Shown: in pieces, positions 3,237 to 61,512 of the stretch
Position numbering within the stretch: position 1 is the stretch's first letter
Layout of the letters: each line of letters opens with the position of its first letter
Source: Eledone cirrhosa
Taxonomy: Eukaryota
Direction: 5' to 3'
NCBI GenBank assembly: GCA_964016885.1
Contig: OZ024743.1
Span: 61,504,001-61,568,000 of the forward strand
DNA length: 64,000 nt
The notes under the pieces: generated by a model
What the model was told of the DNA's origin: nothing
Database searches by the model: none
Seen by the model: only the letters and a program-made list of their open reading frames with translations
Position numbers and translations under genes: made by a program

Positions 3237-3349
<113 letters not shown>

Positions 3350-3459
3350 CACAACGGCAAAATATACGAAATGCTGATCAAGCACATCGTTCTACTAACC
3401 AAACACGAACACAAGCCGTACGAAATAGAAACTGGCTGATGGGTGCTTTTCCTTATGAC

Positions 3460-8278: not shown

Positions 8279-8429
8279 GTGCACGTGTGTATGTGCACGT
8301 GTGTATGTGCGTGTGTTTATGTTCCAGAATTTCACGGTTTGAAAAAAGTGTGATTAAATATATTCCAGACTTGAAATAAACAGATAATGGACTGACAGTC
8401 GACTTGAGGACGGTGTTCCAGCATTGAGT

Positions 8430-8552
8430 TACGGTCTGAATTCAAATCCTGTCGAGCTTAACTTTCTCTTTTATCCTTACGGGGTTGATAAAACAAAGCA
8501 CTTGTAATGCATTGGTATAATTGCTGGCCTTGTGCCAAAAGCAGAAACAATT
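8430..8552 (+). mobile_element. SINE family A copy
   Basis: ctgaattcaaatcctgtcgagcttaacttt...atccttacggggttgataaaa. Confidence 0.65.
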
Positions 8553-15903: not shown

Positions 15904-16688
15904 TGTCGAAAATTTCTTCACAAGAGCCTTTATTCTTATAGCTTGGTCTAATTGATTTTTTATATGGTTAGTTATGCTAATTGGGAGAAGAAATGGTATA
16001 TATTTTATCTAGTGATTCTAAGGACATGATTTATGATATATTGCTCTGATTATTTAATTTATTAATTCTTCATTGAGCCACAACGTGACCGGTTGCAAAA
16101 CATATATATCTATGACTTTATGTATATGTAAACCTTTATATTTAATAATCTCCCGTTAGGTTGAGATACAATTAGGCGATATTGGGCTGCGCTTTCTAGC
16201 AACAAGCCTACCCGCCGTAAGCAACTAATCACATTCTTTCTAACTTGACCACTGCCACGTCACAATTCTTAGCCATTTTTGACGCGATCACTTTGGAAAA
16301 TTAAATGTCTAATTTAGAGTTCGCTCCTGATGAGTCCGAAATTCTAGACATGTCCTGTTATTGGATGTCTAAAAATACGGACGAAACCATGGTAGAGATA
16401 TAATTACGGTATGTACACATTTCTTCTAATTTTGAATTTACACCTAATTGTGTATGGTTGATGGTATATTTAGTCAGTTTCCACATGCTGTTGAAATGTT
16501 GGATAAATATTCTATCGGGGCCACCGTGAAGAGGCCGCTTTCAGTTATTTGTCGAAAATTTCTTCATAGGAGCCTTTATTCTTATAGCTTGGTCTAATTG
16601 ATTTTTTATATGGTTAGTTATGCTAATTGGGAGAAGAAATGGTATATATTTTATCTAGTGATTCTAAGGACATGATTTATGATATATA
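15904..16688 (+). mobile_element. ORF-less element with ~137-bp terminal direct repeats and an internal hammerhead
   Basis: 15904-16040 is nearly identical to 16550-16688 (period about 646). HHR at 16324-16397. TA-rich flanks. Confidence 0.8.
16324..16397 (+). ncRNA. Canonical type I hammerhead ribozyme
   Basis: ctc-CTGATGA-gtccg...cggac-GAAA-ccatgg-TA^-gag, with a palindromic stem III. Confidence 0.85.
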
Positions 16689-18742: not shown

Positions 18743-18750
<8 letters not shown>

Positions 18751-19193
18751 AACATGGGGAGAAGAATACTGCATGGTTGCACATGGGTTACATATTATGA
18801 AATTAGTCCCTCATCAGTGATTTGCCAACCATCATTGGTATTTCATCGCTTTAAAAATCAGATACCTCAGGTTGGTGCGAGCAATAACTAAAATAAGCTA
18901 TTGGGACAAGTGAAACGCGTAGAGCGAGTGAGACAAGTAAACAACAGAAGGAAAAGCAAACCGAAGGTTGGGAAAACAGCAAGCAATCATGATAGTTATC
19001 CGATCAGCATAAACTGGGTGAATTTCATGAGCGGTCAGAGAAGCAGACCGCACGCCGTGAATGCGGTGTGAGAAAGAAGAAACCCCACTACTAGCGAACG
19101 GGAGGAAGTGAGAAGGGGAGAAACAGAGAGTGAGTGAGTGGAAGTGCGAAGAAGAGGTCAGTCGAGAGAAAGTGTTAACTGACAGAGGGGATG

Positions 19194-19277
<84 letters not shown>

Positions 19278-19396
19278 ACAAGGGGAGAAGGATACTGCAT
19301 GGTTGCACATGGATTACATATTATAAAATTAGTCCCTCATCAGTGATTTGCCAACCATCATTGGTATTTCATCGCATTAACAATCAGATACCTCAG

Positions 19397-19398
<2 letters not shown>
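18743..19398. repeat. ~127-bp direct repeat (18743-18873 / 19272-19398), each copy preceded by (TA)n
   Basis: ggggagaag.atactgcatggttgcac...cagatacctcaggt occurs twice. Homologous to the arms of the 36978-37345 palindrome. Confidence 0.85.
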
Positions 19399-19890: not shown

Positions 19891-20271
19891 TATAAACGTT
19901 AGAATATGTGTAATAAGGCCAAGACAATGCAGGTATGGACATAGAAAAAAGAATGCAATAGTGAAAGATATTGATGTGAATTCGTCTTTCACCTTGAATT
20001 TATTTAAATGTCCTTAATTTTCGAGATAATATCTCTTCTTCGGAGCGAAGTAAAGGTCTCAAACCAGCGTCTTTAAATCTCTAATTAGAGATTTAAAGAC
20101 GCTGGTTTGAGACCTTTACTTCCCTCCGAAGAAGAGATATTATCTCGAAAATTAAGGACATTTAAATAAATTCAAGGTGAAAGACGAATTCACATCAATA
20201 TCTTTCACTATTGCATTCTTTTTTCTATGTCCATACCTGCATTGTCTTGGCCTTATTACACATATTCTAAC

Positions 20272-20278
<7 letters not shown>
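19891..20278. repeat. 388-bp loopless palindrome with a minimal HHR-like motif in each arm
   Basis: Centre 20084/20085. Plus strand 20123-20157: cct-CCGAAGA-a-gagata-t-tatctc-GAAA-at-TA-agg. Confidence 0.9.
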
Positions 20279-20312
<34 letters not shown>

Positions 20313-20525
20313 TATATATATACTATAGAGTAAATCATGTCCAGAGAATTATTTGATAATATATATACATCATCTCTACTCCCAATCAGCATAATTAACC
20401 ACACAAAAAATCATTTACACCAGGCTATAAGAATAAAAGGCATCTATGAAGAAACAGTAAATAAATACGCCTCAGCGGCGTCTTCGCGTCCAACCGCTAT
20501 ATAATATTTACCCAACAATAAAAAA

Positions 20526-20815
20526 TAACCTATATTGGGCAATCGTCTGTTAACAACTAGACAGTTTTGGAAACTGTTCCGCAACATCTTATTAAGTCAA
20601 GTCCACACTTTTCCCTGCTGCTCAGTAGTTGTTGAGAAATTAGTGATCCTTCCACTTCTAAAAAACATTAGAAGACTGAATTGTGTGCGATAAGAAATAT
20701 CGCACGTGTCTTCGGAACCCAGCTTGTCACGAAATTCCATGTCGCTAAAAATATTATGTTGTGAAGCAGTTTCCAAAACTGTCTAGTTGTTACCAGGCGA
20801 TTACTCAATATAGGT
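20526..20815. repeat. ~60-bp inverted repeat carrying a decayed HHR 3' half
   Basis: Arms 20526-20587 / 20756-20815. Downstream 20820-20965 is homologous to the 34820/35341 direct repeats. Confidence 0.7.
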
Positions 20816-20969
20816 CTGTTATTTTTCTTAATTTAATACTTAAAATTAAGTCTGACAAACCATATTGCTGTAGTTAGTATTTTTTCACACTAGCAAACTT
20901 GGTCCTTACGATTCGAACACATGTATGTTTATATTAGTGTTCATCTCTCTTGTTTATTCAATTATATAT

Positions 20970-21013
<44 letters not shown>

Positions 21014-21018
<5 letters not shown>

Positions 21019-21130
21019 AAAAAGTATGACCCCGACGGCAGAGCTCAAACCGTTTCGACGGCTATTTCTAGTCCAGAAATAGCCGTCGAAACGGCTTGAG
21101 CTCTGCCGTCGGGGTCATACTTTTTCCTAT
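21014..21130. repeat. Fold-back palindrome of the 13060-family 3' end
   Basis: 56-bp arms with a 5-nt loop. Contains atagccgtc-GAAA-cggc..gccg-TC-gggg. Confidence 0.9.
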
Positions 21131-23793: not shown

Positions 23794-23856
23794 TTTTATC
23801 TGATGAGGACGTACTGAAAAAAACTGCACAGTACCTCCGAAATATATGTAATAAAA
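23794..23856 (+). ncRNA. Canonical type I hammerhead ribozyme
   Basis: ttttat-CTGATGA-ggacgtactg...cagtacctcc-GAAA-tatatg-TA^-ataaaa. Confidence 0.8.
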
Positions 23857-25695: not shown

Positions 25696-26350
25696 TTAAC
25701 TGTATACTTTGTGAAAAGTTCTATGGAATTTATGCAGGCAGATAGAAAACAAATCTGAGCGTCTATTTATTATGGATTCTCGGTTAGAGATAATGGTAAA
25801 TTTTTCATTTAGGCAGAGATTACAGATTTTAGATAGAGAGCTGTTCAAGTATGAGGATGCAGAAGAAATCTTTTTCCAAAAGATGTTATATTTAATGTTT
25901 TTGTCTTTCAAGGACCATATGAGTTCTGAGAGAGCAGTGTTAGTTCTTTTAAGTTTGTATTTGAAAGATGAATGATGATTATAGAGACGAGCTTTAAAAG
26001 AGGTGGAAGTGGAGCCAAAATAGGTGAAGGAATTGGTGCTAGTTATAATTTTACATTCATAAATTAAGTTTTTATCGAGGCAATGGTTGTTGAGAGGACA
26101 TTTATTTTTAATGCGGCAGTTGCAATTAGAGAGATTATTAATGAGTGATCTAGTGTTATCTATAGAAGGAATTGGATTGGAGAAGTTGTTTGCGATAGGA
26201 ATAATAGGAATAATAGTTTCTTGATTTAGAGTTGGATTATGAACATTTAGCGAAGTTGTGTTTGACGTTGCATTTGGGTTTACAGAAGTTAGCCTAGGGT
26301 TTACAATGACGTCAGGAGTACTATTACTGTTATTATGAAATTCAATATTG
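25696..26350 (-). mobile_element. PLE C-terminal GIY-YIG endonuclease fragment
   Basis: CNCRIKNKCPLNNHC..NLIYECKI...TYFGST..FKARLYNH..TALSELIW..CNLCLNEK. Confidence 0.85.
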
Positions 26351-26490
26351 GAAGGAAAATACGTGGATATTTTACGTCTTGATGTGGGAGCTAACGAACG
26401 TTTCCACGAACCAAAGTATCGTCTTCCGTCTTCCTCCGGTTGCAACGTTTTTTGAAATATCCACTTCTGCGTTTACAGATTGACTTTGTT

Positions 26491-26859: not shown

Positions 26860-29800
26860 GTCACAAACCAAGCAAAAAGATTGCAGAGACCCCGAAGAAC
26901 CATGGGTTTCTGAGGACCCTGTCGCAGATAGAGAGAAAAAGAAAAGAAATTGATAAGTCCTATGTTCTCATAGCGCCACATATGGCGATGCTAAGCCGTA
27001 TCCTCAAGGAGGAGAAAAACAAAGAGAAAGGAGGAGAAAAAGAAAAGGAAGAAAGCACAAGCACGGACCTGAAAGAAAATGAGATACCCGCCGCCACAGT
27101 CAAGAAGTGAAGGCCGGGCAACCAACAAGCAAACGGTAAAGGTGAGAAGCGAAATCGCCTTCCGAAAGAAAACCAAGCGCAGAGGGACCAGTGGACAACT
27201 GTCCAAAGGAAGAACAGAAAGCACCGAGACACTGGGTGCAAGAAAACCCAAGTAATGTGCAAGTTCTTCAGGAACGGGACCTGTTGGCATGGAGAGACAG
27301 GGATGGGTTGCAGATTCGTCCACCCCAGGTCCCAAACGAACTATGCCCATCCTATTCGCGCAACATGCCTCAGCCAAAGTCAGAACAAGCCGCTCCAGAA
27401 GTATGCTGATGTCGCGTGTGCCCCGCCAACAAGGAGAAGGCACGCACATGCCGACGAGATACAGATGGCAGCAGCAGAGCAGAAAACCTTTTTAGTGATG
27501 GCAGAGAAGATTGTGGGAGAGCTGACCTCGCTGCATCGTTTCCAGAGCCAGGGTCACCCACATCAGCACTCGAGACCACCACACTTAAGGGACCCAGAGT
27601 GGCCACCGCTGACACCAGACAGCCATTACTGGCACCACAAAAGTCACACCAGTACTACTGCTGAATGTCAGAGGCCTGGTGAAACTTAGTAAAATGAGTA
27701 AAATTTCCTACCTGGGAGACTTAGCCATAAGCAATCAAGCATTATGCATGGCACTAACCGAGCAGTATAGCAGATGCAGAAATACATATACCGAAATATA
27801 TTGTATTTCGTTCGGAGAGGAAAGGGAGAACTCATGGTGGGGTTGCTCTGTATATCCGTGAAGATGTCACACCAATTGTACTGTTGACACATTCAAACTC
27901 AGTCTGTGACACACTGATAGTACATATGAAGCAATTACTGACAGTAATATGTGTCACATATCGGCCGCCCTATGCCCCCAGTCATGAGGGTAAATTTGAG
28001 GATAGCCTGAGTAGGATAGAAGAGGTCCTTGACAAACTGGTCCAGGGTCTCAACATTCTACTTCTGGGAGACTTAAACCTGCCAAAAGTAAAATGGCCTG
28101 TGGGCCACCTCCTCCCTGGAATGACGTCAATAGAACAGAGACAGAAGGAATCCCTGCTGGCCCTCACGCACAGGCTGTTTATGGAACAAGCAGTACTCCT
28201 CCCAATAAGAGGCGAAAATGTCCTGGAACTCTGTTTTACAAACAACGAAGTGCTTATCCACAATGTAAAGGTGACACCAACAATTTCTCGGATCATAACT
28301 TAGTAAAACTAATGATATGTGGTCCGAGAGAACCAACAGAGACACAACCACCAAGAAGCATCGGGACGTTATCCAGCCTTAACTTCTACAAGGTTAACTG
28401 GAAAAAGATCAAGAGAGAAATCCGGAAGCAAATATGGAGCGAAAACACCGCCACACAAGACACCAACAAACAATTTCAACACTTTATGACAACGATACAC
28501 ACGATATTCAAAAGGTTTGTCCCAGAGAAAAAAGCAAACAGACACAAAAATCTTATTCCCAGAGATAGGAAAATCCTTATGAGACGTAGAACCAAGCTCT
28601 CAAACCAGCTGAATGCACAAGAAAACAAAAATAAGAATGAATCCTATTTGTAACGTGCGCTACTTGACACTGAGATTGCACTCAAACTTCCCCATGAAAA
28701 TGAGAGGGCAAAGAAAGAAAGCAGGGCCATAGAAAATGTTAAAACAAACTCTAAAGCCCTCTTTAAATTTGCAAAAGAAACTGCCTCGGTACACTGCAAG
28801 ATTGGGCCACTCTTCCATACAGACGGTTCATTAACCGAGAATCCCCAAGAGATATGCGAAATACTGAACGAACACTACAAAAGTGCGTTCACATGTCTAC
28901 TGAGGCACATGCAAATAACAAAGCCAGAGGAGTTCTTCGATGCCACAACACTACATGAAGAAATAGCGACCATCAACCACATAGACATAACGGAAGAGGA
29001 TGTGGTTTACGCCATAGATAAAATTAGAACAGACTCAGCTGCTGGACCTGATGGATTCCCAGCAGTCCTCTTAAAAACATGTAAGCGGGTCTTAGCAACT
29101 CCACTGAAGATGCTCTTCAGAAGCTCCTTGGCTAGCGGTATACTACCCAGGGAGCTGAAAGAAGGCACAATATTCCCTATCCATAAAGGAGGTAGCAGAG
29201 CGGAGGCCAGTCTCCCTGACGTCGCATATCAGTAAGGTCATGGAGCGAGTCGTCAGAAAGAAATAGATCACTTTCCTCGAGACTAGCACGCAGCATGGCT
29301 TCCGCTCAGGAAGAAGCTGCCTTACACAGCTGCTACATCACTACGACTGGGTACTGAAACAACTGTTAGACAGCTCACATGTAGACGTGATATATCTTGA
29401 CTTTACGAAGGCCTTTGACAGGCTCGACCACGGAATGATATGTCACAAACTACACGGACTCGGCATAAGTGGTAAAGTAGGTGAGTGGCTGCATGACTTC
29501 TTAAAGGAGAGAAGCCAGACAGTCGCAGTAAACGGGGCCCTCACAAAGGAAACATCAATAACAAGTGGGGTGCCCCAGGAGACAGTCCTGGGACCACTAC
29601 TGTTTTTGGCGGCTCTCTCAGACATGCCCTCTGTAGTACATACAACAACATCCCTCACTAGCTATGCTGATGACACTAAGGTAGCACAGGCAATAAAAAA
29701 ACCGGCTGACGCTGCCCTTTTACAACAAGATCTGGATGCCATATACAAATGGGCGGAAGAAAACAACATGCAGTTTAATGCTGGCAAATTCCAAGTCCTA

Positions 29801-30620
29801 CAATGTAAACCTGCAAACACAAATACAGTACAACACAGTTACGCAGGACCAGGAAGGACCGATATCCCTGTGTCAAAATCGATACGAGACCTGGTTATAG
29901 ACATGTGCGATGATGCATCTTTTTCCTCACACATTATGAAAGTGGCGCCGTGCAGACGACTCGCTGGCTGAATCTTGAGGACTTTCCGGACAAGAGACCG
30001 AGACACCATGTTGACACTCTGGAGGACATTTGTCCTAAGCCGCCTGGACTATTGCTCCCAGTTGTGGTCACCCCATAGTGTCAAACTAACCACGGAGCTT
30101 GAGGCAATCCAGCGAAGCTACACCAACAGGATTGCCACGATGAAGGAGATAAGCTACTGGGAGAGGCTAAAAGAACTGAACCTCTACTCCTTGGAACGAA
30201 GACGGAGAGATACGTAGTGATCTACATGTGGAAAATCCTGGAGGGACTAGCACCAAACTTTGGTATTGGGAGCTGGACCAACCGTCGAACAGGACGTTAC
30301 TGTGTGGTGCCAAAGGTGCCATCTTCCACATCTAGAATAAGGAGCAGATATTGCAATAGTCAGGGATTCAAGGGCACTTAACTCTTCAACAAGCTGCTGA
30401 GGGATCTGAGAGATCTGCATAGTGTGAAGGTGGATGTCTTCAAGAAACACTCGAAACCTTGCTATCCAGGATCCCGGATGAGACCACAGCAAGGCACGAG
30501 GGAAACCTAAGGGCAGCAGCAACAAACTCCCTCTTACACCAGTGGCCAACCAACACAGGCTGGAGATAAAATATGTAGCAACAAGGGCGGTGCCCCAGCA
30601 TGGTTGGAACAGGTAAAAGA
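26857..30620 (+). mobile_element. CR1/L2-group LINE: ORF1 remnant with CCCH finger plus APE-RT ORF2, frameshifted
   Basis: CKFFRNGTCWHG..CRFVHP; YRPP, LLGDLN, SDHNL; AAGPDG, QHGFR, IYLDFTKAFD, GVPQ.TVLGPLLF, YADD, LDYCSQLWSP, LYSLERRR. Flanked by (TA)n. Confidence 0.9.
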
Positions 30621-31361: not shown

Positions 31362-31760
31362 AAAGAACTAAGTGACATAGTCACTACTTTAAAATGATAG
31401 CGCAAGGTCTTAAAAATGTTTTTAATTAAACATACGGTATATTACCAAATATACTATACATCGCTACTTCAGAGCACCAATCCTAATTTTTTATTTTTGC
31501 TGGACCGATAATCGCTCTGTTTAATCAGTTCCTGATTATTACTGGAATTCTATAAGAATCCATCATCTATAATTTTCGGCAGAGGTCGGGTGTACGTTGC
31601 TCTGAGGAACACCAACAGTGTGAAACAGAATCCGTCAGCTTCTCTCCCTTCCTTTGTCAAAAAAGAAGTAAGTGACATAGTCAATACTTTAAAATGATTG
31701 CGCAAGCTTTTCAAAATTGTTTTAATTAAACATACGTTATATTACAAAATATACTATACA
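31362..31760 (+). mobile_element. ORF-less 300-nt monomer plus 98-bp terminal direct repeat, with a hammerhead, embedded in (TA)n
   Basis: 31362-31460 is similar to 31662-31760. HHR at 31599-31639. Confidence 0.85.
31599..31639 (+). ncRNA. Minimal type I hammerhead ribozyme
   Basis: gct-CTGAGGA-acac-caaca-gtgt-GAAA-c-agaatcc-g-TC^-agc. Confidence 0.8.
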
Positions 31761-31764
31761 TACA

Positions 31765-34083: not shown

Positions 34084-34225
34084 TTTCTACTATAGGCACA
34101 AGGCCAGCAATTTTGGGGGAGGGGAAAATCGATGAAAATGACTCCAGTGCATTACTGGTGTTATATTTTATCGACTCTGTAGGGGTGAAAGGCAAAGCTA
34201 ACCTCGACGGGATTTGAACTCAAAC
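34084..34225 (-). mobile_element. SINE family A copy
   Basis: tttctactataggcacaaggcc...actggtg..ttttatcgac..gaaaggcaaagctaacctcgacgggatttgaactca. Confidence 0.75.
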
Positions 34226-34692: not shown

Positions 34693-34736
<44 letters not shown>

Positions 34737-35550
34737 CATAATATAACTGAATATAAAAGAGAGATAAACACAGATATATACATATATGAGTTTAAATCGT
34801 AAGGGACCAGATTCGCTTTTTTTTCTTAATTCATTCTTTTAAATTGAGTCTGACAAACCCTATTGTTCAAAGTTAGTATTTTTTCATCCTGGTGAATGTG
34901 GTGCCTTATGATTTGAACACATATATGTATATATCTGTGTTTATCTCTCTTTTATATTCAGTTATATTATACAGCCCGGAAAAATTTCTTTCCTTGAGCT
35001 ATTTAATTGTAAGAGACTATTTTGAGTTTCTAACTCAATATATACTTTTGATATATTGGGCTCCTTGAATCTGTAGAGATAATTTAAATGTCGAGTAAAC
35101 TTGGCTACTTATTTAGTAGCATACGTTTTGCGAGACACGCTGGGCACTGGATGCAATGTGCGTTATTTTATATACACACACCATTCAGTCTTCTGAGATA
35201 CTTAGAAGTGAAGGGTTTGCTAATTTCCACACCCACTGAAGAGAAATGGAAATGGTAATTCCCTGTCACTAAATTGCGAAACAGCATTACCGAAAGCTGT
35301 CTGGGTGTCTGATAGTTATCGCAATTTCGGTATGTATATTTTTTTCTTAATTTATTCTTTTAAATTGAGTCTGACAAACCCTATTGTTCATAGTTAGTAT
35401 TTTTTCCACCCTAGCGAATCTGGTCCCTTACGATTTGAACACATATATGTATATATCTGTGTTTATCTCTCTTTTATATTTAATTATATTATACGACCCG
35501 GAAAAATTTCTTTCCTTGAGCTATTTGATTGTAAGAGACTATTTTGAGTT
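34737..35550 (+). mobile_element. ORF-less PLE-type element: 5' inverted segment, ~210-bp direct repeats (period about 520) and a hammerhead
   Basis: 34820-35028 is similar to 35341-35550. 34737-34815 is the reverse complement of about 35414-35492. (TA)n on both sides. Confidence 0.85.
35229..35308 (+). ncRNA. Canonical type I hammerhead ribozyme
   Basis: acaccca-CTGAAGA-gaaat...attgc-GAAA-cagc...gctg-TC^-tgggtgt (7-bp stem I). Confidence 0.85.
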
Positions 35551-35674
35551 ATATATATATATGATAGAGATGCCATAACTCTTTGTGGAGTCGTAGAGGC
35601 ACCGTCACATGGTGTATCTAGAGCACTTTTAAACCTAGCGGAGCCCAACCCTTTCCAGGCCTTTACACAGCCCA

Positions 35675-35850
35675 TTTTTTCTATAGAGGAGGAATCGACC
35701 CCAGTATTGTACTGGTACTTTTTTTATCGACCACTAAAGGATGAAAGGCAAAGTTAACCACGGAGGGATTTGAACTCAGAGCGCGCAATGAGGTAGGACG
35801 AATAGCGTAAAGCATTCTATCCGACATCCTAACGAATCTGCCTATTCGCC
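35675..35850 (-). mobile_element. SINE family A copy
   Basis: actggtactttttttatcgacc..aggatgaaaggcaaagttaacc.cgg.gggatttgaactcag. Confidence 0.75.
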
Positions 35851-36977: not shown

Positions 36978-37342
36978 TAAATGAAGGAATGAAAAATGGC
37001 GTGCTACGTTGTTGCGAATATGATACATATGAATTTAAAAATAGAGCAAGAAACCAGGACTATCCGTCATCAGTGATCTTCTGGCTATCATCGGTATTTC
37101 TTCGCATTAAAGACCAGACACCCCAAGCCATAAGTTTGTAAAATATGTATATATATATATATATGTATATGTATATACATATTTTACAAACTTATGGCTT
37201 GGGGTGTCTGGTCTTTAATGCGAAGAAATACCGATGATAGCCAGAAGATCACTGATGACGGATAGTCCTGGTTTCTTGCTCTATTTTTAAATTCATGTGT
37301 ATCACATTCGCAACAACGCAGCACGCCATTTTTCATTCCTTC

Positions 37343-37345
<3 letters not shown>
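36978..37345. repeat. ~170-bp-arm fold-back palindrome with a TA-rich centre
   Basis: Arms about 36978-37150 / 37175-37345. Confidence 0.9.
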
Positions 37346-38560: not shown

Positions 38561-38922
38561 TACGATATTAATAAATGGAAACTATATTTATAAAACCATA
38601 TTTATTTCATTATACATATTTCAGGGATACCAAATTAAATTATGGTATGCCTTCATCAGACAAAATACAATATATAACAGTTTTACAAATAAGCTTTGAC
38701 GTACCCTATTAAAATGCAACCATTATTTTTGGAAGCCATCCGGATGGCTTCCAAAATTAATGGTTGCATTTTAATAGGGTACGTCAAAGCTTATTTGTAA
38801 AACTGTTATATATTGTATTTTGTCTGATGAAGGCATACCATAATTTAATTTGGTATCCCTGAAATATGTATAATGAAATAAATATGGTTTTATAAATATA
38901 GTTTCCATTTATTAATATCGTA
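38561..38922. repeat. 362-bp loopless palindrome with a canonical HHR on each strand
   Basis: Centre 38741/38742. Plus strand 38816-38880: tattttgt-CTGATGA-aggcatacca..tggtatccct-GAAA-tatgta-TA^-atgaaata. Mirror copy at 38603-38667. Confidence 0.92.
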
Positions 38923-39477: not shown

Positions 39478-42660
<3,183 letters not shown>

Positions 42661-47628: not shown

Positions 47629-48037
47629 GAACCAGTAAGACCCCGACAGCTGAGCTCAAGCCGTTTCGACGGCTAATTCTGGACTAAATGAAAATTTATC
47701 CTGGTATTTAAATAGCCGATCTTCTCAAGGGGTAATTCCATATATGGTAAAGTTTTTTCGGTGGGATTGGGATGTTCTTGGTAGAGAAGTCAATGTTGTG
47801 TTTTCGCATGGTGCGGGTGAAATGAATTGAGCTTAGCGGAAAAGTCTGGATGCGGCGTGCGAAAACACAACATTGACTTCTCTACCAAGAACATCCCAAT
47901 CCCACCGAAAAAACTTTACCATATATGGAATTACCCCTTGAGAAGATCGGCTATTTAAATACCAGGATAAATTTTCATTTAGTCCAGAATTAGCCGTCGA
48001 AACGGCTTGAGCTCAGCTGTCGGGGTCTTACTGGTTC
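47629..48037. repeat. 180-bp-arm fold-back with HHR-like motifs (13060 family)
   Basis: Arms 47629-47808 / 47858-48037. 47933-48026: acccc-TTGAGAA-gatcggcta..tagccgtc-GAAA-cggc..gctg-TC-ggggt. Confidence 0.9.
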
Positions 48038-48645: not shown

Positions 48646-51600
48646 AAACATTGTGTACAACAACAATCTAATAAAAACACAAGGGCCTAACTTCACCCAG
48701 GCAGGGGATTTCCCCCACCTCAAAATGATTAAGGCCCCACAGGACACCTATAAAACTTTAAAAAACAATTTTAAAGAGGACGTGGGTCCCCCCTGCGTCG
48801 GGCCCATTAACCGCGTCCTCCTGAAAAAAACTATCCCACCCCTTCCCCAAACACCCACACAACTCCAAGCTCCCCAACCACACAACACACTGATGCCCCT
48901 ACACTTCCACAAACCACCACCCCACCCAACAACCCATCCCCCACCCTAATGGAAATTGTGCAGCCCGATACCCGGGACGCAGAGAGGTAAGTGCCTTTTC
49001 TCTTCACCACCAACATGGCTATGCTAAGAGTAGGCTGTTTAAATGCGCGTGGCCTGGGCTCAACTTGGAAGCAAGCAATGCTTCTAAATGACCTCAGGTC
49101 ACAACGTATAGATGTGATGGTTATTTGCGAGGCCCGGATCAGCAACGTGCGACAACTGGCCCCCACCTTTGATGACTTTGAGATGCACGCATCTCTCTGT
49201 CAGCCCGGAGGTGGGGGTGGAGTTGTCATTCTGCTGCAAAAACATCTGGGTCTCGCAACACAGATGGTACATTTGGACCCGGAGGGTCGACTAGTGGTTC
49301 TGGACCTTGTGTGGTAAAGGCGGAGCGTTTAGGTTGGTAGCCGCCTACGGCCCTTTCGGGTCAATGCGGCCGGACTTCTTCCATCGTCTGGAGATTTTTC
49401 TAGGGACGTTCCGCTCCTTGCTATTAGTGGAGGACTGGAATGGTATCCTAGATGCACGCTGGGACTACGTAGGGGCCTGTCCCGATAGAGAGGGGTGTAA
49501 TAGCCTCAAAGGGTTAATCGGTCGATTTAACCTGGCCGATAGATATCGACTAGATTTTCCGACTGCGCCAACCTGGACTTGGGCAAATCGTAGCGGAACA
49601 TCTAGGTCGTACCTAGATAGGTTCTTAGTTAGAATTAAGGATAAGGACTTTTTAAGTTGTCCAAAAATGCGCATGGTTGGCTATTCAGACCACAAATTAG
49701 TGACCTGCATGGTCAACCTTGACAGAACTCATAGACAGGGACCCGGTTACTGGAAGCTCAACTTGTCCTTACCGGCAAGTAAGGCTTACAGGAACCGGAT
49801 TAGCACTTTAGTTAAGGAGCGGTTGACGGGCGCCATCGTCAACAGCAGGTGGTGGGGATCTCTCAAAAGAGAGATTAGAGTAGTCTCTATAGAATTTAGT
49901 AAGGAGTTAGCCTCCAATAGAAATAGGAAGGAAAGGGAGTTGGTAGATAGTGTAGAAGAGGCAATTAGAAGCGGCGACGTGGCCAGAGTGCTAGCGCCGA
50001 GAACGGCCCTGGGCCAGTTCTTCGACGCGAAACACGAAGGCTGCATCGTCCGAAGCAAAATACGTGCTCTGGGAAACGCGGGGACCAAAGCTGTTAGCTG
50101 GGCCCGCGTGACAGAAGCCAAAAGAGGGAGCAGATCCACTATCCGGTCTTTGCGAGACCAGGATGGACGTGTAATCCTTGAACCTAAGCAGATGTGCGAG
50201 GCTTTTCAAAAGCACTTTGCCGAATTGTTCGGAAGGGGCGGGGGGCGGTTGGGGACGTGGACTTCGGTCCATACCTCGACGGCCTGCCGCGTCTCTCGGA
50301 CAGGGAGGCGAAGTCCTGCGAGGAGCCGATTTCAGCCGCTGAGATAGAGGACGTGCTGAGCCAATGCGGCAAACGCAAATCCCCGGGTCTCGATGGTCTT
50401 CCATACGAACTATATCTAGCTATGCCGGACTTGTTCCCCGAACTCCTCGGGGCGGTCTACTGCAACTGGCGACAGAACGGGAGAATTCCCTGTGCTGTGA
50501 CCAAGGGCGTAGTCACGCTAGTGAGGAAGGACGAGAACAAAGGGGACGATATAAATAATTTCAGGCCCATAACTCTGCTAAATACAGAGTTACAGATTTT
50601 GGCCAAGGTGCTAGCAAAGAGGTTGGCGCTTGTCGTGGGCAACCTGGTGGGAGATGCGCAGACATGTGCTATCCCGTCCAGGTCCATCCACGATAACCTC
50701 CACCTCATGCGATACATCATAGAGAGGGTTGGGAACGAACCCGGCTTTGGTGGGGCCCTGATCAACTTGGATCAATCTAAGGCATTCGATAGGGTCGACC
50801 ATGGTTACCTGGATGCGGTGCTAGCGGCGGCAGGCTTCGGACCCGTTTTCAAGGGCTGGATCAATGCCATGCAGAGCAGCCGCATCTGCTCTAGGGTCAA
50901 GGTGAACGGCTACCTCTCGGAGCCGTTCGAAATCGCGTGGTCCATCCGACAGGGGTGCCCTCTCTCCTCCCTTCTGTATGTAGTGACTCTAGAGCCACTG
51001 CTGCGGAAGTTGGAGTTGTTGCAGGGCATCCCGTTGGAACCGGGATTGCGGAAAGCGGTGTCAGCCTACGCCGATGACGTAACAGTAATGGTGTCGACGG
51101 CCTCGGAAATCGGGGCGATCGGCACCTTACTGGAGGAGTACGAAAGGTTTACAGGGGCTAAGCTGAACCGGGACAAGTCGATCGGTCTGCAACTCGGCAC
51201 GTGGAGGGGCAGATCGATGCCCTCCGATGGCGTCGTCGGGCGGTGGACGGAGGGCCCGGTGAAATTGCTCGGGGTCTGGTTCGGACCAGACCTCCAGGTG
51301 GAGAAGAACTGGGGTGAGGTGACGAGCAGGGTGTTTGCACTGACCCAGAAGTGGGCCGAGTGCAAACTGTCCCTGAAAGGTCGGGCGGAGGTGGCGAACA
51401 CTTATATAGCGTCTGTCATCTACTACCGCCTGACCGTGGTGCCTTGCCCAAGGGAAACGCTCGCCAAAATGGAGCGCGCACTCTTCCAATTCCTTTGGAA
51501 GAAGCGGGCTCCTATGGTGAGGAGATCCATCTGCTGTCAACACCCTTCGAAAGGAGGGCTGGGGATGCCGTGGCTGATGATACGTAAACACGCATTAAGG

Positions 51601-52711
51601 CTACGGCACCTTCAGGTATTCCTCTCCGGTCAACCGGTGTGAGCCCCGTTTGTGAGGCGAGCCTTTCCCAGACTCGTCTCACTCACCGAGCTGCAATCCT
51701 GGGTCAAGCAAAGACCGAGAAAACTGGGCGCCTGGCACACCGAGTGTGCCCAGGCGCTCACGGCTCTCTGGCAGGCGGACCCGGCTGTCAGTGGAGAATC
51801 CACCTCGTCATTCTATAGAGGGCTGGCGGTTAGCAGGTGCGACGACGCCCTCGGAGAAGCCCTAGGCATGGAGGAAGACGAACTGGCCAACCTGTTCGGT
51901 AGGACATTCAGCCCGGGACCCATGGATAACTTCCAGAAGTCCCTGGCCTGGCAATGCTACAGAAGGGCTCTGCCCGTTCGAGAAAGGCTCTACAGACACG
52001 GGCGCCCGGGTAGGGACCCATCGAAAAAGGTCTGTCCCAGATGCGTGTGCGACGAGGAAACCGTTGCACACGCATTGGTACACTGCTCGGGCATTGCCGA
52101 TCTGTGGGGCTATGCCAAACAACTGCTGTCAAGGGTGGGACCGATCCGGTTGACCACCGAGCCTATTGTAACGATCAAGCCGCCTCCCCTCTTCAAAAAC
52201 GAAGGAGAGGCGGTGTTTCTGTGCGTAATAGCCATGGCGAAAGAGGTTGTATGGTGGACGCGTCTGAAAGGACTGAGGTCAGACACCTTTCTCTCTGGCC
52301 AACAACTGGTCCGTTTCTTCCGATATCATTTCGGAAGAAGGATCAGGATGGAGAGAGAGGTGCTGCACCCCAGCCGTTTCTATGAAAGATGGGTGAAAGT
52401 GGCGAGAATGGCCCGTGTGAATGGGCCTTCACTCTACATCAGACTATAGGTGAGGAAGATGAAAGACCAAGGGAGCACCCCTTCTCTGTGCTCCTGAGGA
52501 GAAGGGTTGCACACTTTTTTCGGGGGTGTGTGCGACCCCCCAAGGCGCCTTCTCTCTATTGAGGACTTTGTTATAAATTTTATTTTTTGTTATATTTTAT
52601 TTTATTTTTATATATTGTTATTGCCTCCTCCTTATTGAGGACGCCTTGTTTTGTAAACTCCCCCCATTGTACTTGTCCCACTTTTGATGCCCTGGTGGCA
52701 AATAAAAGAAA
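48646..52711 (+). mobile_element. Tx1/L1-clade LINE ORF2 (APE-RT-zinc knuckle), 5'-truncated, few disablements
   Basis: CLNARGL, SYLDRF, SDHK, GPGYWKLN, KSPGLDG, FRPITLLN, LDQSKAFDRV, IRQGCPLS, AYADD, CPRC..ETVAHALVHC. AATAAA at 52701. (TCTA)n on both sides. Confidence 0.93.
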
Positions 52712-52875: not shown

Positions 52876-53350
52876 CCTCACTTTGTTGAGATCGGACGCA
52901 ACTACCTCGCTCCAAGCTATTGCACCACTAGAATTAAGTCTAATCGGTTTGGTGTAACTTATTCTATTTTTTTCTCGGTTACTCACTTTAATGTTCCATT
53001 GGTCTATGTCCCTCCTTCATTCGCTCTGTTTACTACGATTTTTTCTCTTTCTTCCTCTCTCCTCACTAATTTTCCTTTTTTTTTCTTTTCTTTCCCTCAT
53101 GGATTTTGATCGATAAAAGGCATGGGGCGCGCTGCAGACCGCTTTTCATGTCCTGGTTTAAGCGCCGAAACATATATGATCTGCTGTTAACAGCTGACGA
53201 AGGGGCCCTTCTCTTGTTTCGTCCATGTTTACAGAACCTACACAGCACGCTTCGTTTGTTCTAATTATATAAATATATATATATATATATATATTTCGTT
53301 TCTGTATTTGTGTAGCAAGATTCTTTATCTGAAAACGTGTGTTGAAACCG

Positions 53351-54987
53351 ATATTGTTATACTTTGGGTGGGTCATGTTGCCAATAAGAAACATACGCAC
53401 CAGTTGCTTTCACTTCAATTTATTATAATACATTTATAAATTTAGGAATTTATAAATTTCTGGTTGGTTGGTTGGTTCCACAACCAGATGATTGTTTATA
53501 TATTGTCAAAGTCCTTTCGTCACACATTCTGTGACCTCTTCAGTGACTGGGGATTCTTTTCTTTGTTTTTGTGCCTCTCCTTTGTTCTGTCCTACGCCAT
53601 CTTGTTTTTGTGTGTTGTGTGCTTAGTTTGCGCATGTGTTACATCCGGGTGTCTGTGTGTGTTTATATTCGTTTATTTATTTGTTTATTTACATGTTACT
53701 CGTTGGTTGTTTGTTCTATGGGCGTGTGTGTTTTCATTTTGTCCTTAATTGTAAGTTGTGATGTTGCTGTTCCATTCATGTTTTCTATTTAATTTTGTTT
53801 GGAGTTCATTTATGTTTATTGCCTCTCTGATTTGTCTAAACAGTTCGTCTTTTCTGCGTGTAGATTCTATTTTTATTTCTATGCTCTCTAACTTACCCTT
53901 ATGTTCTATTTCGGCATGTTGGAAGAGTACAGATGATTCTTTACTATCTTGACGGTCTCGCGAGTGTTCATTTATCCGTTCCCCTATACTACGAGCTGTC
54001 GCACCTATGTACACTATATTTTTATCTCTACATTGTCCTTCAGTGCATCTTATGCTATATACTACATTTCTAGTTTTACAGTTAATATGGGGGCTTAATT
54101 TACAGATTATACATTTCTTATCTATAGAGGGAGGTTTTTGAAAAGGGTATGTATTGCTAATAAGTGTTTTTATGGAGGTATCTGGTCTTTCTACTATCTT
54201 AATATTGAGTTTATGTTTATCTCGGGCCCTTCTAAATTAACTGTATATTAACTGTATATTAACTGTAAAACTAGAAATGTAGTATATAGCATAAGATGTA
54301 CTGAAGGACAATGCAGAGATAAAAATATAGTGTACATAGGTGCGACAGCTCGTAGTATAGGGGAACGGATAAATGAACACTGGCGAGACCTTCAAGATAG
54401 TAAAGGATCATCTGTACTCTACCAACATGCCAAAATAGAACATAAGGGTAAATTAGAGAACATAGAAATAAAAATAGTCTACACACAGAAAAGACGCAAT
54501 GTTTAGACAAATCACAGAGGCAGTAAGCATAAAAGAATTAAAACCAAAATTAAATAGAAAACATGAATGGAACAGCAACATCACAACTTACAATTAAGGA
54601 CAAAATGAAAACACACACGCACATAGAACAAATAACCAACCAGTAACATGTAAATAAACAAATAAATAAACGAATATAAACACACACAGAGACCCGGATG
54701 TAACACATGCGCAAACTAAGCACACAACACACACAAAAAAAACAAGATGGCGTAGGACAGAACAAAGGAGAGGCACAAAAACAAAGAAAAGAATCCCCAG
54801 TCACTGAAGAGGTCACAGAATGTGTGACGAAAGAACTTTGACAATATATAAACAATCATCTGGTTGTGGAACCAACCAACCAACCGGAAATTTATAAATT
54901 CTTAAATTTATAAATTTACTATGATAAATTGAAGTGAAAGCAACTGGTGCGTGTGTTTCTTATTGGCAACATGACCCTCCCAAATAT

Positions 54988-54995
<8 letters not shown>
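53351..54995. mobile_element. Inverted duplication of a PLE 3' end (GIY-YIG + 3' UTR + HHR in each arm)
   Basis: Arms about 53351-54087 / 54257-54995. VVYSIRC...YIGATARSIGERINEH. HHRs at 53505-53547 (-) and 54800-54842 (+). Confidence 0.92.
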
Positions 54996-55600: not shown

Positions 55601-55605
<5 letters not shown>

Positions 55606-55862
55606 AAAAGATAACAAGAACGATTGGTTACTCCTTCATTACATTTATTGTAAGGTGACGCGCGTTTCGCCACTGATCAGCTCAATGTTCGATCTGTATC
55701 GATCTTACCCAACTCTATTTAAAGGGTCCATCGAGCTGCGAATTATAGAGTCGGGTAAGATCGATACAGACCGAACCTTGAGCTGATCGGTACCGAAACG
55801 CGCGTTACCTACCAATAAATGTAATGAAGGAGTAACCAATCGTCCTTGTTATCTTTTCAATA
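55601..55862. repeat. 118-bp-arm fold-back with a degenerate HHR-like motif
   Basis: Arms 55601-55718 / 55745-55862. ggt-aagatcga...GAAA-cgcgcg-TT-acc. Confidence 0.85.
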
Positions 55863-56684
55863 TAATACACTCTGTATAGCTCTACACCTCGACACAGAAG
55901 TGAACCTAAACATCGAGTGCTCACCCGGGTGAACCTACTATAACTTTAAGTTACACTCCCTAGATATAGATATGTATATTAATCTGAGGATGTGTATGTT
56001 AAGGTTTGTAACGGATTCACGTCCACAATTTCCAACGGATTCTATTCGAAGTCGGGACAATTATTCCTTTTGGTCAGGAAAAGGTCATGAAGTAAACAAA
56101 TTTTACATCAACAATACATCAACAATAAGGGCAAAAATCGATCATGATCATTCCCTCTCTCTATAATTTAACTGCTTTACTCTCTCAGTAGCTCTTCTCT
56201 CCCTATATGACAACACTGCAGTGGAGGGTTCCGTATTGAGCGTTCCGTATTGACATGCGGCTTATCTGGGGCATTTTCAATCGGCTTATTGCAAATAACA
56301 ACCCGCAAAATAACACTTCATATAACAGATTGATGCTATAGACATATGAATCGGAATGTTTAAATTATTTATTTTTTAAGACTTTAATTGGTTAAATATT
56401 AATATGACAACACCTATAGTGTTGTACTTCTGGCAATTCTGCCGAATACACTGATTAGGTGAGTGTGAGGTTAATGTTTTTTTTCTTTTCATATAAAGTC
56501 AAATATTTCTATCCAAATACTACCAGTTGGTAGATAATTAGTCATACCTACCCCCAATTTTGTTTGAATATTGCATCTTCATTTACTTTTTTTCGTTGCC
56601 ATTTAATCTTCCATTCAATTGTGTTCACCATTTAGTTTCGAATTTCATAAGGTTTTTGTTTAACATTCTCAGTTATAATTGTTT

Positions 56685-56850
56685 CTATTTTAGGCACAAG
56701 ACCAGCAATTACCCAGTACATTACTGGTACTTTGTTTTATCGACCCCGTAAGGATGAAAGGCAAAGTTAACCTCGGCAGGATTTGAACTCAGATCGTAAA
56801 GGGACGTAACTGTGCTGGAAAGCATGTCCGACCCTCTACCGATACTGCCA
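56685..56850 (-). mobile_element. SINE family A copy just upstream of the Helitron ORF
   Basis: aggcacaag..actggtactttgttttatcgaccccgtaaggatgaaaggcaaagttaacctcggcaggatttgaactcag. Confidence 0.8.
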
Positions 56851-56866
56851 ATTCACTTCAGTTATA

Positions 56867-59800
56867 ATGCCCCCCCAAAAAAGAGATGCTCACTTGGTCG
56901 TAAAACGGTGTCTGCAGCTAAAAAGAAAAGAAGACGGTTGAATGAGTCGCAGGAGGAAACTGAATTGCAATTGTCACAAAGTGCTTTACGTTCAGCAAAT
57001 AGAAGAGCTGCTGAAACCGACGACCAGCGTAGTGAGCGTCTAGCCAGCAATACATCTTACTATACTTCGTCGCGTGCTAAGCTTAGGGATTTAGACCGTT
57101 CTATACGTAATTCCCGGAATGCTCTGGCTTCTGCCGCTGCTAGGGCTACCGAAAATGAACAGCAAAAATCAATTCGTAATTCCAGTAATGCTGTGGCTAC
57201 TGTCGCTGCTAGAGCCGAAGAATCACAAAACAATCGTAGTATTAGACTAGAAAAGAACAATCGGCGCAAAGAAACTGCCCGGGGCATAAAAAGTCCAAAC
57301 AATTCATATTGGCTTTTAAAAGCTTTTAATTATGATCCAACACTTAACCTCTCAATGCGGTCTGACATCCAGACTGGGAATATGAGTTTAACTTGCAAGT
57401 TCTGTAGTTCAAATAAGTGGGCTGGAGAATCACCTGGAATGTGCTGCTCCAATGGCAAGGTTAATTTACTCCCCCTAGAGGACGCACCGCAGCCTTTGAA
57501 AGAACTTCTTACTGGCACAACTCCTAGGTCAAAAGATTTTCTTGAACTCATCAAAAAGTACAATTGTGCCATTCAGATGATCTCTTTCGGGGCACGCGTT
57601 GTCAAAGAAGAAGGGTGGATGCCCACATTTAAAATTCAGGGACAGATATAACATCTAATTGGATCACTCGAGCCTCAAGAAACGGAAAAGTCCGCGTTTC
57701 TCCAAATCTACTTTATAACTGACTAAATTAGACAGGCTGACATGCGTATTTCTATTATTCCTAAGTCGAACGGCGAGAAAAGTAAATCTGTTGACTAAGA
57801 CATACTTCTCGGTCTTCAACGCATGCTTCATGAAAACAACAGCTACGCCCAGAGCTTCAAATATGCCTTGGAATCAACACCTGTACCCAACTTCAACATC
57901 GTTATTGATGCATACTCACCGATATAACGCCCCCGCATGCAATGAAGTAGCCGTTGTTCTCCATGGAGATCAGCATAAAAAAGGGACATTGTCATTAAAA
58001 GTCGGGACGATACGCTGCAGAGGATTTGTGAAACGCATCGGTCATACGACAGCCTACCATATCCACTGCCTTTTGTTTATGGGGAAGACGGATAACATTT
58101 CGGTATTCCTCAAAGCAAGTCAAACAATTCTGACGGGACGTCAAACAATCCTGACGAGACGTTAAACAATCCTGACGAGACGTCAAACAATCCTGACGAG
58201 ACGTCAAATAAAATCGTATCCTGTATGGATTTTTATTCCTACCGCTTCATGATCAGACAGAATAGTTTTAATCATATTCATTGATCATGAGATCTTTTCC
58301 ATCAGTTTGCAGTTGATATGGCTGCAAAAATGGAGTCTAAAAGGTTATGCTTCATTCAGACGCATCAGAAACAGTTGCATTCTGAATTTTACATTCACCT
58401 CCGTGATGGCATAAGGAATGATGCACATCTGCGGAACCTTGGAAAGGTTTGTATCCTTCCCTCTAACTACGTTGGGGGGCCCCGATACGTGCACGAAAGA
58501 ACCCAGGATGCCATGACGTTTGTGCGCCATTATGGTCACCCAGATCTGTTCATTACATTCACGTGTAATCCGAAATCGGTTGAGATAACCCGTGAATTTT
58601 TTCCTGGGCAAAATTATTCGAACAGACATGACCTCATTGCCAGAGTGTTCAGACTGAAACTGACTAAACTCATGGCTTTAATCAAAAAGGGTCAGGTATT
58701 TGGGGCTGTAAAATGTGACATGTTCACCGTCGAATGGCAAAAACGAGGGCTGCTCACATTTTGATTTGGTTAGCTGATAAAATCAATTCAAATCCCATAG
58801 ACAGTTTCATTTCAGCTGAAATCCCTAACCCAGCAACTGACCAGGAATTACATGACATCGTCAAAGCTAACATATTCATGGTCCGTGTGTGTCGGGTCCT
58901 ACTGAGCATCACACGTGTCTGAAAGGGGGGGGGGGGGTCGTGCAGAAAGGGATACCCAAAAAAATTTGTTGACCAGACTCAGACTGGTGGCGATGGGTAC
59001 TCCCTGTACAGGCGGAGACGGCCCTAGAACGGTGGCTTCACCACAACAGAAAAGGGAGGTCATGTCGACAATAGATGGGAAGTCCCTTACTGCCCGCTTC
59101 TCTTGAAGATGTTCAACGCCCACATCAACGTTGAGTTTTGCAACTCCGTCAAGTCTATAAAATACATATGCAAATATGTAAATAAGGGCTCTGATGCCGC
59201 AATGTTTGCATTTCAAGCTGAAAATAGCAGGGACGAGATCACAGAATACCTGGCGGGGCGGTACATCAGTAGCAATGAAACTTTTTGGCGCTTATTTGGT
59301 TTCCCCCCTACACCAACGGCACCCCGCCATCGTACAGCTTGCGGTACATTTGGAAAATGGGCAAAGGGTTTACTTTACGGACCAAACCGCCGCCAAGCTG
59401 GTTGCCGATCCGAAAGAGACCACTCTGACAGGTTTCTTCAAACTTTGCCAGTTCGATACATTTGCGCAAACAATTGTGCACCCCCAGGTTCCATCCGACT
59501 TTATATGGTCGAAAAACACTTGGGTGCGAAGAAAGTCAGGTCAGGCTGTTGAAAGACATCCTGGTGTAAAATTTGACAGCTGTCTTGGAAGGGTTTACAC
59601 TGTGCCCCCAAGTCAGCATGAGTGCTTTCATCTCCGCCTTCTTCTGCATGAAGTTGTAGGCCCACAAAGTTTTCAGGACCTCAAAACTGTTGATGTAGAA
59701 ATATCTGATACGTACCGGGAAGCCTGCTTTAAACGTGGTCTTTTGGAAGATGATTCGCAATGGGATTCCACTTTAGCAGAGGGTGCTTTGATGAAATCAC

Positions 59801-61512
59801 CTAAAGGTCTACGGGAACTCTTTGTCATTTTGCTTCAAAAGTGTGAATTGGATGATCCCAAATCTTTATGAGTCAAGTACAGAGACTTCATGTCTGAGGA
59901 TTCCTGCACCTGGCTCACCTGCAGTATCCTTCAGTGGAAGTTGCTTACAGCGACATTATCTACAACAGGGCACTCATTGATATCGAGGACGCCCTCCTTG
60001 ACATGGGTGGGAGTGAGTTGGCGACGTATGGCTTGCCGTCAACCGTCAGAGATGAAGCTAACACGTTGGCTCCGGATTTGTTGCGGGAAACAGCATATGA
60101 CATCGAATCTATTTCCCAATACTTAGAGGAAAAGGAGCCCAAACTTCTGTCGGACCAAAGGTTGGCCTATTTAACTATCATTGACGCGCTTCAAAATCAG
60201 ACTGGGGGTATTTACTTTCTCGATGCTCCTGGAGGTACCAGAAAAACTTTTGTAACAAAATTTATTCTCGCTAAGATTCGTCAGGAGAAAAAATTGTGTT
60301 GGCCGTTGCATCGTCCGGGATCGCTGCTACTTTGCTGCCGGGAGGCAGGACAGCACATTCAACCTTTAAACTCCCCTTGGATTTAGTAAAAACTGAGACA
60401 CCAACATACAATATCAGCAAGAGTTCACACGAAACTCTCGTTCTCAAAATATGTTGCCTCATTGTTTAGGATTAGTGCGCAATGGCACACAAGGGTGCTC
60501 TTGAGGCATTGGACAGGACCCTGAAAGACATTAGGGATTATACGACTCCTATGGGTGGCGTAACCCTTCTGCTATCAGGGGATTTCCGGCAAACGCTGCC
60601 TGTCATCTCCAAATGGACGACAAAAGCTGATGAAGTAGTGCGTGCCTGCCTTAATTCGTCCATGTTGTGGCCCCAGGTGAAGACTTTGTACATGAGCACA
60701 AATATGCGTGCTCATTTGCATGGTGACAACATGTCTGCAGCATTTGCTCAGAACATTTTAGCACTTGGTGAGACCAAGGTCCCTGTGGATGACAAGGGCG
60801 GCATAGCAATCGACTCTCTGTGCAACATTGTGAGCAGCCCCTCTGACCTTTGGGAAGCAGTTTTTCCTAATGTCTCATGTAATTTAAAACCTTCGATTGG
60901 CTCAGCGAAAGAGCCATCCTTGCTCCAAAAAATGCCATGGTTAATTTTATTAACGAGCAGCTGATTAAGAAGATTCCCGGTAAAGAGCACATCTTCAAAT
61001 CTATCGACCGGACGTCAGATCCCGACGATGTTGTTAATTATGCGGTTGAGTTATTAAATTCCCTTGAGCCCCCAGGGTTCCCTCCTCACATTCTTAAGCT
61101 TGGGGTGGGCTGTCTCATTATGCTAATAAGGAACTTGCGTCCACCAAAGCACTGCAATGGTACTCGCATGGTCGTCAAGTCACTGACGCCCCACTTGATT
61201 GAGTCCACTATTGTAACGGGGTGCGGGAGAGGGGAGAATGTTTTCATTCCAAGGACGAAGCGTTTGCCCTTGGCGTCAGATATCCCGTTCGATTTCCAGT
61301 GATCCCAATTCCCGATGAGACCATGTTTTGCTATGTCCATTAACAAGTCACAAGGGCAAACATTGTCGCTGGCGGGCATCCATTTGGGGGAGCCATGCTT
61401 CCCCCATGGCCAACTTTATGTTGCCTGTTCCCGCGTAGGGAGCAGGAATGCACTTTTTGCCTACACTACTCAAGGGATTACACGCAATATCGTCTACAAA
61501 GAGGTGCTATAG
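56867..61512 (+). mobile_element. Helitron Rep-Pif1 helicase (RepHel), frameshifted pseudogene
   Basis: Zn finger CKFC..MCCSNGKV; PDLFITFTCNP; HUH EWQKRGL/AHILIW; KYICKYVNKG; DAPGGTRKT; GDFRQTLPV; CNGTR; AMSINKSQGQT; HGQLYVACSRV. Confidence 0.95.
58119..58208. repeat. 21-bp tandem repeat x4 inside the Helitron ORF
   Basis: Units gtcaaacaatcctgacgagac with no spacers. Confidence 0.85.

Follow-up and report, generated by a model that had tools for sequence, protein, structure and literature searches.

Background

Non-LTR retrozymes of animals, including those of a mussel, have been described by Cervera and de la Pena (2020, PMC7229834), and PLEs are named as their likely mobilisers in the accessible text of that paper. 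The mobilisation of retrozymes by PLEs has further been argued from co-occurrence and from a Xenopus phylogeny in a preprint (Li, Clavereau and Pollet 2026, bioRxiv 10.64898/2026.07.22.740005), the accessible portion of which covers no mollusc or cephalopod and mentions neither inversions nor tails. The enzymes that mobilise animal retrozymes have so far been argued from co-occurrence and sequence kinship, and the scars left by insertion are a more direct form of evidence.

PLE sequences are mobilised in trans, according to the available parts of PMC3846280 and PMC8557442. Purified PAc, as reported in the sections at hand of PMC11167929, cleaves both strands of AT-rich DNA and initiates reverse transcription from two internal RNA sites, the spacing of which equals the tail; cleavage by the hammerhead ribozyme (HHR) is not needed for PAc in vitro. 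Self-priming on an antisense template is given as another route to head-to-head arms in the available part of PMC3846280. Related literature includes PMC7761336 and PMC8969392, both available in part. A literature search, confined mostly to papers free of subscription, turned up no published cephalopod retrozyme, no retrozyme described with the insertion scars of PLEs and no hammerhead in which loop II pairs with loop III.

The locus described here lies in a window (the whole stretch of DNA analysed, 64,000 nucleotides) of AT-rich eukaryotic DNA with abundant microsatellites and transposon remnants.

Results and discussion

Structure of the insertion

The insertion at 34738-35550 lies within an AT microsatellite and consists of head-to-head arms with direct repeats and one complete 522-nt unit. 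The features of the locus are the following.

34693-34737, no strand: (CT)n(AT)n microsatellite, left flank and likely target site, a target-site duplication being indistinguishable within the repeat
34738-34817, minus strand: inverted 5'-truncated arm, copy of 35413-35492 (76/80), head-to-head with the main arm, with the short 3' end
34818-35028, plus strand: R1, 5'-truncated upstream partial unit (pseudo-LTR equivalent), identical to R2 at 198/212 columns
35029-35550, plus strand: single complete 522-nt non-coding unit, 34% GC; the joint of 35550 to 35029 recurs in other copies
35219-35316, plus strand: type I hammerhead with extended stem I, predicted cut after 35301
35223-35253, plus strand: predicted base-pairing of loop I (35223-28) with loop II (35248-53), six Watson-Crick pairs, attained in 142 of 20000 shuffles
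35339-35550, plus strand: R2, 3' terminal repeat, from the repeat comparison
35493-35550, plus strand: 58-nt tail on the direct arm, with no counterpart on the inverted arm or in the relative at 20 kb
35551-35562, no strand: (AT)6, right flank

A preliminary description of this stretch had reported a period of about 520 nt, direct repeats of 210 bp and an upstream inverted copy of 79 bp, all of which are borne out by measurement: the period is 521-522 nt, the repeats (212 columns) are 93% identical and thus differ by 6.6%, and the inverted arm, the reverse complement of 35413-35492, is 80 nt long. It had also found the inverted copy more similar to the downstream repeat than to the upstream one. 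The counts agree (76/80 with R2 and 73/80 with 34891-34970 in R1) but are uninformative, since over the 80 shared nucleotides R1 carries five private changes, R2 two and the inverted arm two (binomial test of R1 against R2, p 0.45), and this bias was dropped as a sign of template order. The three arms would fit a single template followed by separate decay.

Both outer ends of the insertion are 3' ends of the unit and both adjoin (AT)n. The direct arm reaches 35550, whereas the inverted arm breaks off at the position corresponding to 35492, leaving the 58-nt tail on one side; the direct arm holds 1.4 units (733 nt) with one HHR in the whole insertion. All four marks of a PLE-type insertion, namely a partial tandem, an inverted 5'-truncated arm, a one-sided tail and an (AT)n target, are present. 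The PLE insertion signature proposed earlier is thus upheld by the tail and the target, and also by a coding PLE of the same layout in the window and by similar joints in other copies.

Copies of the family in public reads

The unit (35029-35550) was compared at 80% likeness with four of eight public runs (X1, X4, X5 and X6), which gave matches in 2704 contigs of X1, 44 of X4 and 13 of X5 and in 2395 reads of X6. The contigs of X4 are not read as RNA, and the 13 matches of X5 (organism B), short pieces mostly under 90% likeness, were left out of the evidence. The exact 35-kb insertion was unconfirmed in the public runs (best word share 0.34); among the matches in these four runs no single record spans the whole 522-nt unit or shows a full dimer carrying two HHRs.

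The joint of 35550 to 35029/30 was found in eight contigs of X1, one of X4 and 473 reads of X6 (about 20 and 12 starts), and by itself it shows only that sequence continues beyond the tail. An ORF-less closure at 522 nt follows because overlapping diverged records together span the unit (35031-35224, 35112-35380, 35271-35430 and 35377-35550), one X4 contig connects 35550 to 35049-35226, and one X1 contig bridges 35106 to 35179 through 39 other letters with no ORF between. This closure is seen in several copies that are 10-17% diverged from the 35-kb copy, in two samples. Strand-switch joints account for 5 of the 15 joints displayed (13 further joints and 332 loose ends were undisplayed); four of the five are single X1 contigs and the fifth is an X6 joint with one start, and false joints are possible at 80% likeness. 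The unit is left at 35055-56 by 371 X6 reads that run into AT-rich sequence, which indicates a putative third 3' end.

Depth along the unit is uneven. In X6 it is 24-50 at 35065-35154 against 93-115 at 35155-35226, tripling at 35155 going rightwards, and this step may reflect diverged subfamilies, patchy RAD coverage or copies that run on into a parent so far unseen. The low but present depth just past the tail, a quarter to half of that before the HHR, would be hard to reconcile with a multi-kb ORF between the two. In X1 the depth exceeds 18000 at 35353-35496, compared with 130-4900 inside the unit, and its peak at 35425-35478 probably owes part of its height to low-complexity matches. The ends of X6 RAD reads at 35225, 35363, 35482-5 and 35505 coincide with AATT sites and were discarded as library cuts.

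The hammerhead ribozyme motif

The HHR core region (35229-35308) comprises a 7-bp stem I (35229-35/35302-08), the boxes CUGAAGA (35236-42) and GAAA (35278-81), a stem II with one mismatch (35243-47/35273-77) closed by a loop II of 25 nt, a 4-bp stem III (35282-85/35296-99) and GUC. A strict HHR descriptor has one match in the 64-kb window and none in 150 simulated windows. The preliminary description had called this a strong HHR with a 7-bp stem I; stem I and the core are present, while the word strong overstates the case. The pair 35244-35276 in stem II is an A-G mismatch in the 35-kb copy, the HHR-competent fold (-11.5 kcal/mol) lies 11 kcal/mol above the minimum-energy fold (-22.4 kcal/mol) in a model that excludes pseudoknots, and the folding z of the region is -0.89. 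The best Rfam match, to the RAGATH-1 hammerhead, scores 18.2 bits (E 1.1) against a gathering score of 56.3, with none reaching it in the scan of the whole window. Judged by its core and stems, 35229-35308 is a predicted HHR motif rather than a member of an Rfam family.

The family preserves the motif better than the 35-kb copy does. Position 35244 is C in 14 X1 contigs (depth 115/115) and in 5/5 X6 reads, which leaves stem II paired, and 11 X1 contigs carry the canonical CUGAUGA core, compared with CUGAAGA in the 35-kb copy. With the family majority letters at seven sites, which need not share one molecule, the fold gap narrows to 4.3 kcal/mol. In a two-sequence comparison with the relative's inverted arm at 20 kb, four double changes keep Watson-Crick pairing (two in stem I, one each in stems II and III). 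These compensatory changes, along with the stem II restored at 35244, argue that the HHR of the family is under selection. The HHR of the 35-kb copy is worn, its ribozyme probably having been weakened after insertion.

The predicted pairing of loops I and II recurs in the 20-kb relative (six pairs counting G-U, four without) and, by eye, in one loose-end consensus of the family reads; the majority letters of X1 contigs at 35248 and 35252 would break two of its six pairs unless their partners change. Loop II is also complementary to loop III. This second pairing, spotted post hoc, has six pairs (533 of 20000 shuffles reach the same), gains one more from the A at 35292 (X1 depth 1524/1997, X6 98/112) and forms part of the minimum-energy fold, an alternative structure in which stem III is masked. 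It may represent an off state of the HHR, and is offered as a lead only.

The relative at 20 kb

A diverged relative had been noticed earlier at 20756-20965. It was recovered at 20806-20972, with 81.5% likeness to the 35-kb unit over 173 nt, together with a second, inverted arm. When the unit was compared with 19 other segments of the window two matched, and both are arms of this relative.

20331-20745 (start and end approximate), minus strand: inverted arm with the homologous HHR (core 20625, cut site 20560, core damaged), then the 3' region of family B
20750-20972, plus strand: direct arm with the 3' half of the HHR and the family-A 3' region, with the short 3' end in (AT)n

The two head-to-head arms carry one HHR subfamily (83% over 77 nt) and part some 25 nt beyond the cut site, where one continues into the 3' region of the 16-kb family and the other into that of the 35-kb family. 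Template switching or an exchange of modules between families is suggested by this, or else two insertions at one site.

The preliminary description had called for an alignment of family copies, and had named as adverse to its reading an absence of inversion or tandem structure from other copies, or stems that are not conserved. The comparison found neither: the tandem joint and candidate strand-switch joints occur elsewhere, and the HHR stems covary.

Coding capacity of the unit

The GC content of the unit is below 50%, and its longest ATG frame, of 47 codons from 34925, is matched or exceeded in 108 of 1000 shuffles and was dropped as an ORF. The longest stop-free stretch around the unit is 71 aa. 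A tblastn comparison with 120 PLE proteins of one clade found no PLE coding relic in the unit at E < 0.001 (best E 0.15), and controls in the same test matched 120 and 25 proteins. By the ORF and tblastn tests, the RT and GIY-YIG ORF of an autonomous PLE is absent from the 35-kb unit.

A GT...AG stretch near the HHR (35330-35414) is a candidate spliceosomal intron, but its conservation is unsupported: its donor and branch-like letters vary in the family, and none of the 15 read joints displayed is its splice joint. The circular fold of the unit has -123.5 kcal/mol with 58% of its nucleotides paired, values that are uncalibrated by shuffles as a measure of self-pairing.

Coding PLEs and similar elements in the window

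Three ORF remnants of the window have GIY-YIG matches, one of them also matching RT, and one alone passes the Pfam cut-off. For the RT-bearing remnant (335-1750) the highest-identity named homolog among the matches listed (at least 120) belongs to the octopod Argonauta hians (59% identity, 75% query coverage), and the other named homologs among them are from oysters and bivalve-symbiont assemblies (46-52%). These homologs point to a cephalopod as the likely host. The PLE remnant at 1-2175 has a 472-codon RT and GIY-YIG frame with a C-x4-C-x2-C linker and inverted 3' ends flanking it, and would be Neptune-like by the linker motif given in the available part of PMC8557442. Another PLE serves as an internal control.

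53296-54991, no strand: GIY-YIG-coding PLE remnant, separate from the 35-kb element; arms head-to-head, both ends in (AT)n, minimal HHR

One arm of this PLE has a 59-nt tail, compared with 58 nt in the 35-kb element, and a third copy of it, at 21253, terminates at the short end. The layout of the 35-kb element is the local PLE layout. A search for an autonomous PLE with the same 3' terminus, which the preliminary description had proposed, was without success in the window: none of the three PLE 3' regions there matches the unit. Pattern scans for relatives gave 0 and 0 matches in metagenomes and 4 and 0 in viral contigs; all four of the latter are without stems I and III and were dismissed as chance.

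Several other elements of the window are of related form. A second ORF-less partial tandem lies in (AT)n at 15904-16681 (period 646, 132-nt repeats at 98.5%), and its HHR (core 16327) is unlike that of the 35-kb unit, with a palindromic 2-bp stem III of the dimer type and a hairpin in a long loop II. A partial tandem of 300-nt period at 31363-31761, between (AT)n runs, has a decayed HHR-like motif with its core near 31602. Two adjacent truncated copies of another family at 18749-19397, each beginning at (AT)n, are related to a palindrome at 36980-37345 (78% over 63 nt) and have a CUGAUGA box with no complete HHR found. Near-perfect palindromes stand by (AT)n at 19895-20274, 21016-21128, 38562-38921, 47629-48037, 55604-55859 and 63416-63731, several with one-sided extensions and that at 38562-38921 with a small HHR motif on each arm; these are likely to be short PLE-type head-to-head insertions, to judge from their form. 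Small HHR motifs with a 2-bp stem III were also found at 23794-23856 (plus strand) and 24710-24640 (minus strand), the second downstream of the GIY-YIG remnant at 25696-26472.

A short interspersed repeat occurs on either side of the 35-kb element (34140-34222 and 35697-35783) and again at 4047-4192, 8419-8554 and 56674-56811; its family presumably resembles an octopus SINE. Broken frames seen by eye presumably belong to a Helitron-like element (56800-61300), an RTE-type LINE (40000-41800), an L1/Tx1-type LINE (49300-52450) and another LINE (27750-29970).

Origin of the unit and mechanism of insertion

The insertion at 34738-35550 was very probably made by PLE enzymes. The reading preferred here, with a probability of roughly 0.65, is that the 522-nt unit represents a self-propagating, non-autonomous HHR-bearing family that is copied in trans by PLE enzymes into AT microsatellites. 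Several results count against this reading: no autonomous partner was found in the window or by the pattern scans, the X6 depth has its step at 35155, the records laid out above include neither one that spans the unit nor a full dimer, the strand-switch joints are each thinly covered, and the 58-nt tail exceeds the 30-40 nt published for PLEs.

For such copying in trans the template would be an RNA of more than one unit, either transcribed through a tandem locus or cut by the HHR and ligated into a circle. The GIY-YIG nuclease of a PLE would nick both strands of (AT)n, and RT would begin within the RNA, at points some 190 and 250 nt 3' of the HHR cut site, one per strand, and the 3' ends would therefore lie 58 nt apart. 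One cDNA would extend over 1.4 units and the other over 80 nt, and their 5' ends would be joined head-to-head. The three arms would afterwards have drifted apart by a few percent, with the HHR of the 35-kb copy probably weakened in the process.

The strongest competitor, itself rather unlikely, keeps the same insertion mechanism and derives the unit from an abundant autonomous PLE by internal deletion, with most copies being truncated 3' ends of the parent and the 522-nt form a minor by-product rather than a ring that propagates itself. The concentration of X1 depth at the 3' end, the X6 step at 35155 and the ATG frame from 34925, where the ORF of a PLE would begin, speak for such a deleted copy. 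That frame is within chance, however, and no coding relic was detected against PLE proteins of one clade, where the controls matched; moreover, the closure recurs in several diverged copies from two samples, and the 4-bp stem III is unlike the minimal HHRs of the in-window PLE and of animal PLEs as given in the available part of PMC4209133.

Movement of the RNA by a LINE of the L1 or RTE type, with the inversion produced by twin priming, is improbable. L1 does generate 5' inversions, and LINE ORF remnants were seen by eye in the window. In L1 twin priming, however, the inverted piece is upstream sequence rather than a second 3' end, and here both arms have the same 3' end head-to-head, with a partial tandem and a tail and no poly(A), in a layout equal to that of the PLE at 53296-54991. 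The least probable account derives the structure from one old repeat fragment, duplicated and inverted locally as DNA at a microsatellite. The microsatellites at both ends and the divergence of R1 from R2 could be cited for it, but it is largely refuted by the same head-to-tail joint in many other copies and is opposed by the covarying HHR stems and by the 20-kb relative, which terminates at the same short 3' end.

The preferred reading of a family copied in trans admits a speculative and quite doubtful extension, in which parentless hammerhead RNA circles form a guild parasitising cephalopod PLE enzymes, equipped with their own monomer-competent ribozyme, a loop II switch and module swapping. 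As parts of that doubtful whole, the switch would be on when loop II pairs with loop I, and off in the circle when loop II pairs with loop III together with the core's 3' half, and module swapping would be template switching of the kind suggested by the 20-kb insertion.

Comparison with known systems

Like the animal non-LTR retrozymes of PMC7229834 and the 2026 preprint, in the parts of both that are available, the 35-kb element has a short non-coding unit of less than 50% GC, a type I HHR, head-to-tail joints and co-resident PLEs. Its unit of 522 nt is above the 150-450 nt given in the accessible text of PMC7229834 and within the 51-972 nt of the accessible portion of the preprint. By the rule stated there, a retrozyme counts as active when two units follow one another and both contain a complete HHR; the 35-kb copy has 1.4 units and one HHR. 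The 25-nt loop II is also unlike animal non-LTR retrozymes. Pseudoknot-stabilised hammerheads (Perreault 2011, PMC3088659) offer another comparison: the loop II of the 35-kb HHR is long and complements loop III, a pairing that is not described in the available part of that paper.

With endonuclease-bearing PLEs, as far as they are treated in the available parts of PMC3846280, PMC8557442 and PMC11167929, the element shares the partial tandem, the inverted 5'-truncated head-to-head copy, the one-sided tail, the (TA)n target and an HHR about 190-250 nt from the 3' end. It is unlike them in having a unit without an ORF, a tail of 58 nt as against 30-40 nt, and a real stem III in place of the minimal dimer-type HHR. 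Non-autonomous Chlamys PLEs such as MRC1 (Craig 2021, PMC8557442, section 10, available in part) are similarly ORF-less, with pLTRs and head-to-tail insertions. According to the same text, these are elements of green algae, from a clade generally without canonical HHRs, and their 3' ends are similar to those of autonomous families, whereas the present unit is without a matched partner in the window.

The 35-kb element thus appears to behave as a passenger of PLEs and is similar to a retrozyme monomer; with its one HHR, the status of an active retrozyme is not assigned to it. The preliminary description had held that this structure links HHR monomers to PLE machinery. The insertion signature fits that view; the link itself is already published, in PMC7229834 and the 2026 preprint as far as their accessible texts go, and what the locus adds is insertion-structure evidence in a likely cephalopod. 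An ORF-less HHR unit that bears the four PLE marks, in the neighbourhood of a coding PLE that bears them too, points to predicted RT start sites. The finding opens no new class; it supports an existing idea and would extend the class to a likely cephalopod.
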